Source of the DNA: Reyranella sp.
Lineage (GTDB): Bacteria > Pseudomonadota > Alphaproteobacteria > Reyranellales > Reyranellaceae
NCBI GenBank assembly: GCA_052439685.1
Contig: JBQVQG010000028.1
Location: 541 to 64,540 of the forward strand
Length of the DNA: 64,000 nt
Direction: 5' to 3'
The position numbers were made by a program, and so were the translations under genes. Under the pieces are notes generated by a model that had not been told where the DNA came from, ran no database searches, and was given only the letters and a program-made list of their open reading frames with translations. Positions 41,071-59,062 of the stretch are shown here, piece after piece. The number at the start of each line of letters is the position of its first letter. The stretch's first letter is position 1.

Positions 41071-41085
41071 GAACAAAACAGGAAC
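41071..41085 (-). promoter_or_regulatory. Alphaproteobacterial LexA (SOS) box
   Basis: GAAC-AAAACAG-GAAC (GTTC-N7-GTTC on minus strand), 33 bp upstream of ATG 41038. Confidence 0.8.
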
Positions 41086-55396: not shown

Positions 55397-55476
55397 GACG
55401 GAAACTATTATCGCGCGCGGCGGCGTGGTCAAGGGAAAGTTTCACGAGTGGCTAAGTGTTGGGATTGGCCCACCAT

Positions 55477-55587
55477 CCTCATCCTGAGGCGGCCGCTGTG
55501 CGGCCGTCTCGAAGGATGGGCAAAGGGCGTGGTGTTCGTGCCCACCCTTCGAGACGCGGTCCGGCGGACCGCTCCTCAAGGATGAGG
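55477..55587. repeat. Palindromic repeat, family B copy 2
   Basis: CCTCATCCTGAGG...GTCTCGAAGG...CCTTCGAGAC...CTCCTCAAGGATGAGG. Confidence 0.85.
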
Positions 55588-56042
55588 TGTTGGTGGGAGG
55601 CGCCGGGTAGCTCACGAGCCGCGTGATAGCGTTCGATCTGGGAGAGGAAGCCCGACCACAACGCGCGGCGCTTGGCCAACCAGGCCGCGCGCTCATCCGT
55701 GCGCCACGATCGGAACGGGATGCCGCTCCACGGCGTGCGCTTCGCGCTTTCGTGGGTCTGCAGGTGGGAGAGCCAGAGGAGGGCGGCGGCGGCGTGGGCT
55801 TCGTGGGGGAACTGGCCGAGCTGTTCGCAATCGGGCTCGAGCCAGCGGTCGAAGGCGAGGCCCAGCGCGCGCTCGACCCGCTGGAAGTCGCGGCTGCGGT
55901 GCGCGACCTCGGCGCTGCAGAGCGCGACGGCGCGGGCGCGGACGTTTTCGATGTCGGTTGCGGGCGCGGGGAGGGGGCGGCGGTGGCGGCGGATCAGCTC
56001 GGCGACGGTCTCTTTCGGGCGAACGGCGAGACTATCGGGCAT
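55479..56042 (-). CDS. Hypothetical protein, putative target of the CI-like repressor; 3' end reads through repeat B
   Basis: About 145 protein-like residues, then about 35 residues encoded by the repeat. Confidence 0.6.
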   Translation of the reverse strand: MPDSLAVRPKETVAELIRRHRRPLPAPATDIENVRARAVALCSAEVAHRSRDFQRVERALGLAFDRWLEPDCEQLGQFPHEAHAAAALLWLSHLQTHESAKRTPWSGIPFRSWRTDERAAWLAKRRALWSGFLSQIERYHAARELPGASHQHLILEERSAGPRLEGWARTPRPLPILRDGRTAAASG

Positions 56043-56048
56043 GGCGAC

Positions 56049-56102
56049 AGTATCGGATCAGGGTCCGGATTTTTCAAGGCATTATCCGGAATAAAGTCCG
56101 GA
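56049..56102 (-). promoter_or_regulatory. Sigma70-like promoter TTGAAA-N17-GATACT with three TCCGGA sites
   Basis: -35 at 56072-56077, -10 at 56049-56054, 6 nt before ATG 56042; TCCGGA at 56064, 56085 and 56097. Confidence 0.7.
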
Positions 56103-56110
56103 TATCTCTT

Positions 56111-56220
56111 TGTCGTCTTGAGGGCAGCGAAAGACCTCACGGAGCGACCAGAGGACTCCCTTGCGGGCGGGAGATCCTTCGCGGCGCTCCAAGGCGGGGG
56201 TTACCCCGCCCGCGATGACA
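56111..56220. repeat. Degenerate palindromic repeat, family C (GTCATCCTGAGC..AGCGAAGGATCT type)
   Basis: TGTCGTCTTGAGGGCAGCGAAAGACCTC...GAGATCCTTCGCGGCGCTC...GATGACA. Confidence 0.6.
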
Positions 56221-56293
56221 AGAGGAGAGTGCGAACGGCTCGTTCTGCCACCGTCGCTCCCGGACATTGCTGCGCAATGTCCTGACGCTCTTG

Positions 56294-56342
56294 GAAGGGA
56301 GGAAGATAGGCCGAGCGAAGCTCGGCCTATCTTCCTCCCTTC
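56294..56342 (-). terminator. Perfect 23-bp hairpin overlapping the repressor stop codon
   Basis: GAAGGGAGGAAGATAGGCCGAGC-GAA-GCTCGGCCTATCTTCCTCCCTTC; no U-tract. Confidence 0.55.
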
Positions 56343-57082
56343 ATCAGCTCGTCCCACTCCAGCACGCGGTAGACGCGGAACACCATCCGGCGGTCGACGT
56401 CGAATTCCTTGGGCGGACGATACTGCGCAAGCTTCAGGGTCTTCACCGAGATGCCGACCAGCAGCTTGACCACGGTCTGGCGCACGCTGGAGCCGGCGAT
56501 CGGCCTGAACTCGACCACGACATGGTCGTTGACGCTGGGGGCGCGGTCGCGCTCGACGTAGATCAGGCTGTTGGGCTTGCGCCACGGCCACATCGAATCG
56601 CCCACCACGTTCAGCGCGAACACGTCGCCGCGGCCATGGATGCCCGGCGGGCGCGCGACATGGTCGATCACCGTGCCGTTCATCTCGAACTCGCCGTTGC
56701 CATCGCCGCCCATCGCCGTGCCATAGAGCGGCACGTCGTTGGTCATGTGGCCGAGCATTGGCCGGCCCGGCGCGTCGAAGGCGGGCGTGACGTTGCCGGC
56801 CAGATCGGTGACGAAGGAGGAGGCCGAGCCGTCGGCCGCCGTGGGGAACTCGCCCTGCAGCTCGGCGACGCCGACCGGACGGCCGGTCTTCTTCGCGGCA
56901 CCGGCGGCCAGCCGCGCATAGGTCTTGTCGGTCAGCGTCTTGGCGCCGGTCGGGTCGTCCAGGAATTTGCGCAGCGTTCCGTCGCCCAGGCCTGAGAGCG
57001 ATTCCCACTGGGCGACGTTGAGGCCGGCCCCGGCCATGAAGGCGCGCAGGGCCTGGCGGCGCTGGTTGGCGTCGAAGGCCAT
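56327..57082 (-). CDS. CI/LexA-like repressor: N-terminal HTH plus S24 autopeptidase
   Basis: N-terminal helical HTH, VPLYG.A.GG linker, FALNVVGDSM (catalytic Ser) and VVKLL (Lys). Confidence 0.88.
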   Translation of the reverse strand: MAFDANQRRQALRAFMAGAGLNVAQWESLSGLGDGTLRKFLDDPTGAKTLTDKTYARLAAGAAKKTGRPVGVAELQGEFPTAADGSASSFVTDLAGNVTPAFDAPGRPMLGHMTNDVPLYGTAMGGDGNGEFEMNGTVIDHVARPPGIHGRGDVFALNVVGDSMWPWRKPNSLIYVERDRAPSVNDHVVVEFRPIAGSSVRQTVVKLLVGISVKTLKLAQYRPPKEFDVDRRMVFRVYRVLEWDELMKGGR

Positions 57083-57100
57083 GCCGTCAGTCTGACATTT

Positions 57101-57176
57101 TCCGGAATGATTTCCGAGAGGGGAATTTTCCGGAATCCGCCTTGAAGTCGGAAAATAATCCGGATACTCTTCCGGA
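57101..57176. promoter_or_regulatory. Operator cluster in the divergent intergenic region
   Basis: TCCGGA at 57101, 57129, 57159 and 57171, near matches at 57113 and 57147; GATACT at 57163-57168, 8 nt before ATG 57177. Confidence 0.7.
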
Positions 57177-57395
57177 ATGGCCTCTCCCAGACTCGCCCCT
57201 CCAGTCCTCCACCCGTTCCTGGTCGAGGACGCCGCCGACTGTCTCGGCTTCGAACGGGCCGGTGGCTACTCGGCCCGCGCCGCCCGCCTGGCAACCCGCG
57301 ACGTACTGGCCGACCGCGCCCGCGAACTGGGCTATCCCGAAAGGGAGATCGAGCGGGTGGTCGAGGCGGCGCTGGCCGCCGCGTTGCTGCAATGA
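57177..57395 (+). CDS. Small hypothetical protein divergent from the repressor (Cro position)
   Basis: 72 aa, helical, no Shine-Dalgarno sequence. Confidence 0.6.
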   Translation: MASPRLAPPVLHPFLVEDAADCLGFERAGGYSARAARLATRDVLADRARELGYPEREIERVVEAALAAALLQ

Positions 57396-57400
57396 GTGCC

Positions 57401-57530
57401 TTCCGTCGTCTCGACCGGAGCCTCGCGCAGCGAGGCGGAGTGGAGAGACCTTCTCTCCACGATTTGGCGGCTCGTGGTCGAGCGAAGGTCTCTCCGCTCC
57501 GCGCTGCGCGCTCCGGTCGAGACGACGGAA
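57401..57530. repeat. Palindromic repeat, family A copy 2
   Basis: 20-bp perfect arms TTCCGTCGTCTCGACCGGAG / CTCCGGTCGAGACGACGGAA between convergent stop codons. Confidence 0.9.
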
Positions 57531-57532
57531 AA

Positions 57533-58111
57533 TTACGGCTCGCCCAGCCAGAGCGGCCAGCTGCCCTTGCGTGCCTTGCGGGCTTCGAACTCGGCATCGG
57601 CGTAGCGCTGGGCGGCGCGCGGTTCCCACGACAGCGGCTCGTCGAGCTCGTGGCCGTAGACGACGCCGGACGCCAGCATCGCGCCGCCGAGATCGATCGG
57701 CTGGGCCTCGTCGAGGGCGCATTGCGCGACCAGGCGGCATTCCGAATCGTAGCGCGCGATGCGGCACTTTACCTTGTGGTCGGCGCGCGACAGCAGATCT
57801 TCCAGCGTCGCCCGCGCGCGCATGCCGGGCACTGTCTCGACCCGCTGGGCATCGCGCAGCGCCGGCGCCTGCACGCCCCAGATGCGGAGCGGCGTCTTGA
57901 GGCCGCTGCCGCCCAGCGTCTCGCCGTCGAGGGCGAAGACCTGGCCGGACCAGTTCTGCGGCAGCGCACCGTGGGTGGCGGTGCAGCCCTGCGGCTTGGA
58001 CGACGCCGCGGCCGGAGCGGCGGGTGTGGCAGCCGAAGGCTTGGCGTTCTGCGCCCAGGCGGCGGGCGCCAGCAGCGCGATCGAAAGGGCGGCGAGGGCA
58101 AGTCTCTTCAT
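57533..58111 (-). CDS. Exported thermonuclease (SNase)-like protein
   Basis: Signal peptide, LDGETL, LRIWGVQAP, YDSECRLVAQC, DLGGAML..G, Y..AE..AR..RKG.W; the usual catalytic Asp positions appear varied. Confidence 0.75.
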   Translation of the reverse strand: MKRLALAALSIALLAPAAWAQNAKPSAATPAAPAAASSKPQGCTATHGALPQNWSGQVFALDGETLGGSGLKTPLRIWGVQAPALRDAQRVETVPGMRARATLEDLLSRADHKVKCRIARYDSECRLVAQCALDEAQPIDLGGAMLASGVVYGHELDEPLSWEPRAAQRYADAEFEARKARKGSWPLWLGEP

Positions 58112-58213
58112 GCGCCGACCGTGACTTCCGTTTGAGGCGAGGTAAAGGCCGATGGCACGCAGCAGAACGATCACGCTCAAGCTTCTCCTTTTCAGCCGCG
58201 CAGGAGCGACGCG

Positions 58214-58459
58214 ATGAGCCGCGGCCGTCCCTGGAGCGCCGACGATGCGGCGCGCCTGCGCCGGCTGGTCGCCGCCGGCGAGACCGATGGCGCCATCGCC
58301 GAGGCGATGGGGCGTCATCCCGACATGATCCGCCGTCAGCGCCGCGCCGCCGGCCTCGCGCCCGGCCAGTCGCGCGCCGCGACGGTCATGATGATGAGGG
58401 TGAACCGGCGGCGGCTGGGCCGGAAGGTCGCCGGCAAGTACGAGCCGGAGAGCCCGTGA
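58214..58459 (+). CDS. Small HTH protein (GcrA-N/Myb-like)
   Basis: WSADDAARLRRL.AAG.TD.AIA..MGRH; GGAG RBS. Confidence 0.65.
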   Translation: MSRGRPWSADDAARLRRLVAAGETDGAIAEAMGRHPDMIRRQRRAAGLAPGQSRAATVMMMRVNRRRLGRKVAGKYEPESP

Positions 58460-58866
58460 TGGCGGCGCGACCCACGCTCTACAGCGAGGCACTGGCGGCC
58501 GAGATCTGCCGCCGCCTGGCCGACGGCGAGCTGCTGTGCGACGTCTGCCGCCCGGCCCGCATGCCCAGCCGCGACACCGTGCGCCGCTGGCAAAGCGAGA
58601 ACGGCCCGTTCCGCGACCGCTACGCCATCGCCCGCGACCAGCAGGCCGATGCGCTCGCCGAGGAAGCGATCCACATCGCCCGCAACGCCGACGCCGACAG
58701 CGTGACCGTCTGCCGGCTGCAGATCGACACGATCAAATGGCTCATCGCGAAGATCGCGCCGAGACGCTACGGCGACAAGCTGGTGCCCGACGCGACCGTG
58801 AACCTCTCGATCGGCGACGCGATCGAGAAGGGGCGGGAACGGGTGGCGCGGTTGCGGGCAGGGTGA
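58459..58866 (+). CDS. Phage terminase small subunit-like protein (Sf6-type)
   Basis: RPTLYS..LA.EIC.RLA.GE.L..VCR...MPS..TV.RW......FR..YA.AR..QAD.LA...RLQIDT.KW...KIAPRRYGDK; TGATG coupling to the upstream gene. Confidence 0.8.
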   Translation: MAARPTLYSEALAAEICRRLADGELLCDVCRPARMPSRDTVRRWQSENGPFRDRYAIARDQQADALAEEAIHIARNADADSVTVCRLQIDTIKWLIAKIAPRRYGDKLVPDATVNLSIGDAIEKGRERVARLRAG

Positions 58867-58901: not shown

Positions 58902-59062
58902 GGCAATCGCATGTGAAATCTTCCGTCGTCTCGACCGGAGCGCGCAGCGCGGAGTGGAGAGACCTTCCTTCCACCAATAGCCGTCAAATGGAGGAAAGAA
59001 GGTCCCTCCACTCCGCTACGCTCCGGTCGGGACGACGGGGGGTGGGTAGATGCGATAGCCCT
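58902..59062. repeat. Palindromic repeat, family A copy 3 (with the same outer flanks as copy 1)
   Basis: GGCAATCGCAT...CCGTCGTCTCGACCGGAGCGCGCAGCGCGGAGTGGAGAGACCTT...ATGCGATAGCCCT. Confidence 0.9.

Follow-up and report, generated by a model that had tools for sequence, protein, structure and literature searches.

The stretch of DNA analysed here (the window, 64,000 nt, corresponding to C28:541-64540 of a Reyranella genome of 6.08 Mb with 66% G+C and 99.4% completeness) carries an island of six genes, about 3.5 kb in extent, which includes a gene for a CI/C-type repressor. We consider it probable that this locus is a fossil, collinear but with much of its content deleted, of a temperate phage related in kind to lambda or Rhizobium phage 16-3, and that it has been kept at one site in a Reyranella subclade. 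The reading follows from the homologues that p187 and p72, the genes on either side of the repressor gene, and HTH81, a gene for an 81-aa helix-turn-helix (HTH) protein, have in phage early regions, combined with the lack of an integrase on the contig and of an HK97-type capsid or gene transfer agent (GTA) marker in the genome. As such, the object belongs to a known kind, the fossil prophage immunity module, and represents no new kind of system. A first-pass annotation made from the sequence letters had described the locus as a stand-alone lambda-like switch, in which an S24 repressor is flanked by two genes sharing a TCCGGA operator; its observations were confirmed, its interpretation was supported in part, and its lambda-like reading was largely right.

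The order TerS-HTH81-SNase-p72-repressor-p187 (TerS, small-terminase-like gene) is syntenic between the same host genes, ArsR/AHSA1 on the left and thiolase/short-chain dehydrogenase (SDR) on the right, in 16 Reyranella genomes. The SNase-like gene was found at 16/16 loci and the TerS-HTH81 pair at 15/16, and on L012, a short contig, p187 is missing from the recovered genes (L numbers denote the loci and phage contigs compared). This synteny comparison, which the first-pass annotation had proposed, revealed no intact prophage around the island. All six island genes are under purifying selection, with ratios of nonsynonymous to synonymous substitution rates (dN/dS) from 0.17 to 0.37. The repressor is the most constrained (0.17; 84-97% identity among orthologues), followed by p72 with 0.21 and p187 with 0.35, and the medians for the other genes were 0.19 (SNase), 0.35 (TerS) and 0.37 (HTH81). 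The synonymous divergence (dS) of the six genes is comparable to that of the flanking host genes. Given the distribution among species, the insertion is clade-specific and older than the radiation of the clade. For an empty-site comparison no usable site was identifiable in island-less Reyranella, whose divergence is too great and in which neither close orthologues of the flanks nor synteny is present.

The repressor, p187, p72 and HTH81 have relatives in phages. The order and orientation of the island genes mirror those of phages, namely p187, repressor, then (cro), p72, and further on HTH81 and TerS, the last two being coupled by TGATG at the right end of the fossil. Homologues of the repressor occur in complete temperate-phage contigs with integrase, Rad52, NinB and lysozyme genes (45% identity in L032 and 38% in L033), the repressor matches phrog_4 ('transcriptional repressor') at 6e-9, and tblastn found the C repressors of Rhizobium phage 16-3 and its relatives with 26-36% identity and E-values down to 3e-15. 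Homologues of p187 with 53-55% identity belong to early operons of phages, where their neighbours are ERF, Rad52, NinB, HNH, excisionase and integrase genes. A p72 homologue with 44% identity is part of a replication-side operon in L029/L030, contigs that also carry a p187 homologue, and an HTH81 homologue lies in phage contig L028. Judged from these neighbourhoods, p187 appears to be a phage-derived early-left ('PL operon'), recombination-side gene, and p72 the probable relic of an early-right, replication-side gene. The phage homologues of the repressor, p187 and p72 agree with the origin that the first-pass annotation had suspected, that is, a phage remnant without integrase or virion module.

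No prophage with genes for integration, replication, lysis and virions surrounds the island. No integrase was found on contig C28, a tRNA scan of the region found no tRNA nearby, and the genome gave no match to the HK97-type capsid family Phage_capsid (PF05065) or to GTA_TIM (PF13547) in searches to which control genomes responded. The comparison with LexA-like repressors that gate GTA activators, which the first-pass annotation had drawn, is not upheld by a genome that lacks both markers. The earlier term 'stand-alone' also has to be given up, as the TerS-like and HTH genes, found 0.8-1.1 kb further right, are part of one conserved island with the repressor. Their presence, together with the fact that phage satellites often carry a repressor plus TerS, could speak for an active or inducible mobile element, be it a prophage, a satellite using the TerS-like gene, or a GTA regulator. 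We regard this as very improbable, because the island is only about 3.5 kb long, has the same metabolic genes on either side in 16 species, lacks the integrase, tRNA, capsid and GTA matches just named, and shows no operator motif in front of HTH81-TerS.

The repressor belongs to the S24 family by sequence homology: Pfam PF00717 matches all 16 aligned family members, the best at 3.1e-9. The Ser-Lys dyad is present, with Ser163 in a GDSM motif that is at least 90% conserved and Lys206 in VVKLL that is invariant in the family alignment. As this dyad is present, RecA-stimulated self-cleavage of the repressor, and hence induction by DNA damage, is plausible. For the N-terminal domain, the family profile matched two solved structures marginally (E 0.05-0.07), namely the N-terminal domain of MuB and the small Prophage Lp1 protein 11, both of which we take to be HTH domains, and one of the 16 relatives matches Xre-like-HTH (0.0046). 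The genome also encodes a LexA of the normal kind and one other S24 repressor elsewhere. A LexA box at the locus was ruled out, the sole GTTC-N7-GTTC of the window being at 41071.

The candidate operators form two clusters. Perfect TCCGGA hexamers occur upstream of p187 at 56064, 56085 and 56097, and at 57101, 57129, 57159 and 57171 in the 94-bp gap between the divergent repressor and p72 genes (57083-57176), where near matches lie at 57113 (TCCGAG) and 57147 (TCGGAA); all positions and 12-bp spacings reported by the first-pass annotation are present. The hexamer is not enriched in the whole window (19 observed vs about 26 expected), and 7 of the 19 copies fall in two stretches of 39 and 76 bp at two promoter regions. 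Genome-wide there are 1567 copies, or 0.258 per kb, which corresponds to an expectation of about 0.024 per 94 bp. A genome scan for clustered sites, as proposed earlier, found two clusters of at least three hexamers with gaps of at most 45 bp, both at the locus. Of three perfect TCCGGA-N6-TCCGGA arrangements in the genome, two are at the locus and the third has a GC-rich centre.

The functional unit is better read as the 14-bp inverted repeat CGGA-N6-TCCG than as the hexamer; the outer T of the hexamer beside the p72 ATG is not conserved and is often C, G or A. The sites seen in the first pass are real, and the inverted repeat replaces the hexamer as their more likely unit. The 14-mer occurs 117 times genome-wide and six times within 1.12 kb here, and the genome has three pairs less than 60 bp apart, all at the locus. 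A genome-wide regulon was ruled out, as no other operator pair exists in the genome, integrase-bearing resident elements included. Positions of the sites and of the other features are collected in Table 1.

The positions of the sites relative to the start codons are conserved. On the left side, OL1 at -25 from the p187 ATG is perfect at 12/15 loci and carries one mismatch at 3/15, with a variable centre, and OL2 stands at -57/-58 in the majority of orthologous loci, with a third site at -69 in L013 and L014. On the right side, counted from the repressor ATG, the OR3-like site at -34 is perfect at 13/16 loci, with one mismatch at 3/16 and a centre that varies among loci (e.g. AATCAT, AACCCG, ATTCAT). 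The OR2-like site at -80 (-79 in three outgroup loci) is likewise perfect at 13/16 and has one mismatch at 3/16, and the OR1-like site at -92 (-91 in L012) is perfect at 14/16. The degenerate fourth site at -50 has two mismatches in the window, one in six loci, and none in L013. Eight half-site bases are thus position-fixed across the orthologous loci (-92, -80 and -34 for OR, -58 and -25 for OL), while the central 6 bp are free. As the half-sites are fixed and the centres change, this is the footprint expected of a dimeric HTH operator. Operator clusters therefore flank the repressor gene over both early promoters in the lambdoid manner, with 3-4 sites in OR and 2 in OL. The conservation in 16 genomes and these footprints fit the earlier description, in which one CI-like repressor serves two promoter regions through a common operator, and they suggest that the repressor binds these sites.

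Table 1. Positions of genes, promoters, candidate operators and a hairpin at the locus (window coordinates)
Feature	Position	Strand	Description
p187	55479-56042	-	open reading frame (ORF); conserved body 55599-56042 (148 aa)
CI/C-type repressor, 251 aa	56327-57082	-	S24 C-terminal domain; HTH-like N-terminal domain
p72	57177-57395	+	ORF; small three-helix protein
SNase-like nuclease gene	57533-58162	-	Pfam SNase 1.6e-5
HTH81 (81-aa HTH gene)	58214-58459	+	right part of the probable fossil
Sf6-type small-terminase-like gene (TerS)	58459-58866	+	Pfam Sf6_terminase 1.7e-34; phrog_1482 4e-35
PL-like promoter of p187	56049-56077	-	-35 TTGAAA 56072-56077, 17 nt, -10 GATACT 56049-56054, 6 nt, ATG 56042
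PR-like promoter of p72	57142-57170	+	-35 TTGAAG 57142-57147, 17 nt, -10 TACTCT 57165-57170, 6 nt, ATG 57177
Putative PRM-like repressor promoter	57089-57117	-	-35 TCGGAA 57112-57117, 17 nt, -10 CAGACT 57089-57094, 6 nt, ATG 57082
OL1	56054-56067		CGGATCAGGGTCCG; in the p187 promoter spacer, touches the -10
OL2	56087-56100		CGGAATAAAGTCCG; begins 33 bp upstream of the start of OL1
OR3-like	57103-57116		CGGAATGATTTCCG; overlaps the -35 and spacer of the repressor promoter
Degenerate fourth site	57119-57132		CGGAAAATTCCCCT on the - strand; contains the central TCCGGA 57129-57134
OR2-like	57149-57162		CGGAAAATAATCCG; in the p72 promoter spacer
OR1-like	57161-57174		CGGATACTCTTCCG; covers the -10 and start site of p72; two bases common to OR2
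Hairpin	56294-56342		perfect 23-bp stem, 3-nt loop, 100% complementary; overlaps the repressor stop codon 56327-56329

Similar layouts surround the phage repressor homologues. L032 and L033 each have a pair of inverted repeats at the divergent flank and another pair downstream, with the half-sites GGGA-N4-TCCC in L032 and GGAW-N4-WTCC in L033, so that the geometry is similar and the half-sites differ; in L033 one repeat lies inside the spacer of a TTGACG-N17-CATACT promoter. That the TCCGGA clusters arose by chance, are repeat-element sequence or serve another regulator could be argued from the richness of the region in repeats like the repetitive extragenic palindromic (REP) type and from the missing window-wide enrichment. 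We consider this extremely unlikely, since the clusters are unique in the genome, their sites are fixed in position in 16 species with variable centres and overlap the -35/-10 elements of all three promoters, and the same layout recurs around homologous phage repressors with different half-sites. The sixth CGGA-N6-TCCG 14-mer (CGGAACACCATCCG, 56376-56389) falls within the repressor coding sequence, at its 3' end, and may be there by chance or as an extra operator.

The three genes around the operators share one promoter geometry, in which a -35 element, 17 nt, a -10 element and 6 nt of almost constant length lead directly to the ATG. A promoter scan recovered the TTGAAA-N17-GATACT promoter before p187, confirming the element with an operator in its spacer that had been described earlier. 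Its -35, its -10 and the 6-nt distance to the ATG are kept in nearly all of the 15 aligned loci, while the 6 nt themselves vary; the exceptions are a few loci with variant hexamers and one with 5 nt to the ATG. The sequence upstream of OL cannot be aligned between species, and the promoter/operator block of about 75 bp next to p187 is always kept. For p72, TTGnnn and TAnnnT occur at 16/16 loci, with T1, A2 and T6 of the -10 kept. A GATACT -10 had been assigned to both flanking genes; it holds for p187, but at p72 the GATACT at 57163-57168 would leave a spacer of 15 nt and its last base is not conserved among orthologues, so that TACTCT, 2 nt downstream, fits both the conservation and the 17-nt spacing. 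The repressor promoter is placed with less certainty; its probable -10 keeps A2 and T6 among orthologues (CAGACT, CACAAT, CATGAT, CAGAAT) and is always 6 nt from the ATG.

No Shine-Dalgarno motif was found in the 6 nt before the ATGs of p187, p72 and the repressor, and upstream of each ATG an in-frame stop is reached before any other start codon. The missing Shine-Dalgarno motif at the two flanking genes agrees with the first-pass annotation. As the -10 elements stand 6 variable nucleotides from the ATGs and no Shine-Dalgarno motif is present, the most economical reading is that the three mRNAs would be leaderless. The promoter placement that had suggested this earlier, -10-N6-ATG, is kept in nearly all orthologous loci. 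Depending on the species, between about 130 bp and about 1.4 kb separate the repressor stop from the p187 start (e.g. L005:5753-7124), and these differences are due to inserted unrelated or repeat sequence.

A divergent cro-type second regulator is missing from the window. Only the three most divergent loci, L012-L014, which include R. aquatilis, have a 64-aa gene in the cro position (e.g. L013:4711-4905, - strand), where TGATG couples its translation to that of a longer homologue of p72; it is absent from the window and from 12 other loci. The start of p72, ATG-nCC-TCT-CCC-A (M-A-S-P), equals that of the cro-position gene, and the p72 body resumes at HP(F/L)LVEDA. As the two starts are alike, a deletion must have fused the PR/cro start to p72. 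The cro-position protein gave no Pfam match and no BLASTP alignment to the repressor, for which reason its HTH character rests on reading by eye. With the cro-like gene deleted, the circuit would be a repressor gate rather than a bistable lambda switch. The earlier word 'switch' therefore holds for a repressor gate with OR and OL and fails for bistability, a cro-like gene being kept in three outgroup species only. The p72 family comprises 41 clusters of proteins of 60-105 aa and two long repeat-rich matches, and the AlphaFold2 (AF2) model of p72 has three helices and a pLDDT of 84.

A second deletion best explains the place of p187, 6 nt behind a PL-like -10, because p187 is an internal operon gene in phages. 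The AF2 model of the protein is all-helical (pLDDT 88), and many His, Glu, Asp and Arg residues are invariant. Its orthologues in other Reyranella mostly have 144-157 aa, vs 187 aa in the window, where the protein is longer because a REP-B repeat (55470-55590) forms its last ~40 codons (55479-55598). REP-B has ~54 near-full-length copies in the genome, and matches to the C-terminal tail of p187 land on dispersed repeats. A tblastn search of 50,697 phage records with p187 gave no match. The genome carries p187 paralogues at C11:97196-97612 and C4:261545-261757 (39% full-length; 58% over a 71-aa fragment), each roughly 9-10 kb from an integrase gene, and the second S24 repressor (C6:7540-8115, 32%) is also about 9-10 kb from an integrase gene. 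These copies probably lie in resident prophages or islands, and none of them has CGGA-N6-TCCG operator pairs.

Several results weigh against the prophage-fossil reading or against parts of it. The repressor of the window itself scores 21 bits (E 2.8e-4) against PF00717, below the cut-off of 23.3, no Pfam HTH model matches its N-terminal domain, and phmmer and profile searches of solved structures returned only marginal LexA matches (E about 0.1; 0.13 for the LexA C-terminal domain). All Reyranella orthologues have Gly125-Gly126 at the position equivalent to the scissile bond, where characterised self-cleaving repressors have Ala-Gly or Cys-Gly; distant relatives have Ala-Gly (P0037-P0039) or Arg-Gly (P0035) there, with an invariant second Gly. 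Pfam, NCBIfam, PHROG and PADLOC scans yielded nothing usable for p187 or p72. Structure prediction, a check suggested with the first annotation, gave confident models, but at E<0.001 Foldseek matched neither the p187 model to anything in PDB and BFVD nor the p72 model to anything in PDB. Further, an orthologous repressor was found in 16 of ~65 sampled species of the GTDB genus and in 0/5 sister genera, so that it does not belong to the core functions of the genus as a whole.

How the fossil might work can be outlined from the positions of its operators. A repressor dimer would bind the 14-bp inverted repeats cGGAw-N4-wTCCg. At OR1 and OR2, over the spacer, -10 and start of the rightward promoter, it would repress p72; at OR3, over the -35 of its own promoter, it would regulate itself; and at OL1 and OL2 of the leftward promoter, OL1 lying in the TTGAAA-N17-GATACT spacer, it would repress p187. 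Inactivation, most likely by self-cleavage at the Ser163/Lys206 site stimulated by RecA filaments, would then let p72 and p187 be expressed from leaderless mRNAs. With the cro-like gene lost and its start codon fused to p72, this would amount to a simple repressor gate.

What the host may gain from the locus is a matter of several readings. It is conceivable, though we hold it with little confidence, that the subclade kept the gate as a domesticated circuit after two deletions had put p187 and p72 behind leaderless early promoters. If so, the circuit would give a fast, Cro-less, damage- or phage-triggered burst of two new-fold proteins, for example a modulator of recombination or nucleases, or an abortive-infection or division effector. 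The repressor may instead have been kept mainly for superinfection immunity against phages with CGGA-N6-TCCG operators, p72 and p187 being tolerated passengers. Immunity from cryptic-prophage repressors is well known, the repressor is the most constrained gene of the island, and related repressors occur in complete phages. We nevertheless judge this account rather unlikely, as the frames of p72 and p187 are intact in nearly all 16 loci, their dN/dS values are low and their promoters and operators conserved, while the viral contigs searched for a closely related active phage held no repressor above 45% identity and no other operator pair is present in the genome, resident integrase-bearing elements included. 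Immunity and the prophage-fossil reading are compatible and do not exclude each other.

The locus could also be a host-recruited effector system triggered by DNA damage or phages, with p187, p72 or both inhibiting division, modulating recombination or a nuclease, or serving as an abortive-infection toxin. The purifying selection on all parts would fit this, the invariant His/Glu/Asp/Arg residues of p187 suggest a defined active or binding site, the phage homologues of p187 adjoin recombination genes, and the architecture resembles PrtR/PrtN and AlpR/AlpA of Pseudomonas aeruginosa (PMC12796719). However, p187 and p72 have no homology to PrtN, to AlpA or to any Pfam, NCBIfam, PHROG or PADLOC family, no fold match was found, and the cleavage site of the repressor is non-canonical, so that we offer this possibility only tentatively. 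A known defence system was ruled out, there being no PADLOC match.

In the remainder of the island, the SNase-like nuclease has a signal-peptide-like N-terminus as judged by eye and is probably secreted. The divergent gap between its gene and HTH81 (58163-58213, 51 bp) holds no operator motif, and the two genes are therefore probably controlled independently of the repressor. TerS is present in a single copy in this genome; two related genomes have a second, diverged TerS-like copy past SDR/thiolase (L001:766-912, 76%; L002:77-424, 69%). A palindromic element of about 130 bp, resembling REP sequences or miniature inverted-repeat transposable elements (MITEs) and ending in the terminal inverted repeats TTCCGTCGTCTCGACCGGAGC / GCTCCGGTCGAGACGACGGAA, occurs in two copies (57400-57530 and 58917-59038). 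These stand directly 3' of the stop codons of p72 and the TerS-like gene and so bracket the SNase-HTH81-TerS block, and the genome has ~61 near-full-length copies. The hairpin at the repressor stop codon has 2 BLAST matches in the genome and is likely a terminator that parts the repressor transcript from p187, or else a rare palindromic element. The region gave no genuine match in Rfam and tRNA scans, and the weak Rfam miRNA matches to the hairpin are meaningless.

The locus offers a natural example of an immunity region shrunk to a minimal module of repressor, operators and targets that has persisted through speciation, in which the deletions that removed cro and joined early promoters to surviving genes can still be traced. 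Its CGGA-N6-TCCG operator and three probable leaderless promoters may serve as a compact regulatory toolkit for an understudied alphaproteobacterial genus. It also points to the p187-like and p72-like small families, which are widespread in the early regions of temperate phages and have confidently predicted but unmatched folds.

Compared with known systems, the locus resembles the lambda immunity region in that the gene of the repressor, which has an S24 domain, is flanked by two operator clusters, one divergent and the other at the same-strand downstream promoter, each with several operators over -10/-35 elements. One operator is positioned so that it could switch off the promoter of the repressor itself. 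Like cI mRNA from PRM, the repressor transcript is probably leaderless. Unlike lambda, it has no cro (fused to p72), no N/Q-type regulators, and no integrase or virion genes; its operator is CGGA-N6-TCCG, its target genes are probably leaderless too, and the equivalent of the cleavage site is Gly-Gly. Among annotated isolated phages, the closest repressors are C of Rhizobium phage 16-3 and those of Sinorhizobium phages AP-16-3 and NV1.1.1 and Aurantimonas phage AmM-1 (CI). They share an alphaproteobacterial temperate-phage setting and an S24-type C-terminus, with alignment over the full length to the two Sinorhizobium phages, but identity is low (26-36%) and they reside in complete phages. The operator half-sites of phage 16-3 are ACAA/TTGT. 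Escherichia coli DicA/DicB (Qin) and RacR/YdaS-YdaT (Rac) are similar in that the repressor of a decayed prophage gates neighbouring phage genes from old early promoters. DicA and RacR have no S24 domain, and Qin and Rac are much larger and vary among strains, whereas the Reyranella remnant is only about 3.5 kb and is conserved across 16 species. In PrtR/PrtN and AlpR/AlpA of P. aeruginosa, a chromosomal phage-type S24 repressor gates a small adjacent gene and is autocleaved after DNA damage (PMC12796719). The Reyranella locus differs from them in that p72 and p187 are not homologous to activators or antiterminators of the PrtN or AlpA type, matching no Pfam, NCBIfam or PHROG family at all, and in that its operators occur only at this locus. 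Cryptic-prophage repressor modules and LexA-like local regulators of the PrtR/AlpR type are its closest functional analogues.

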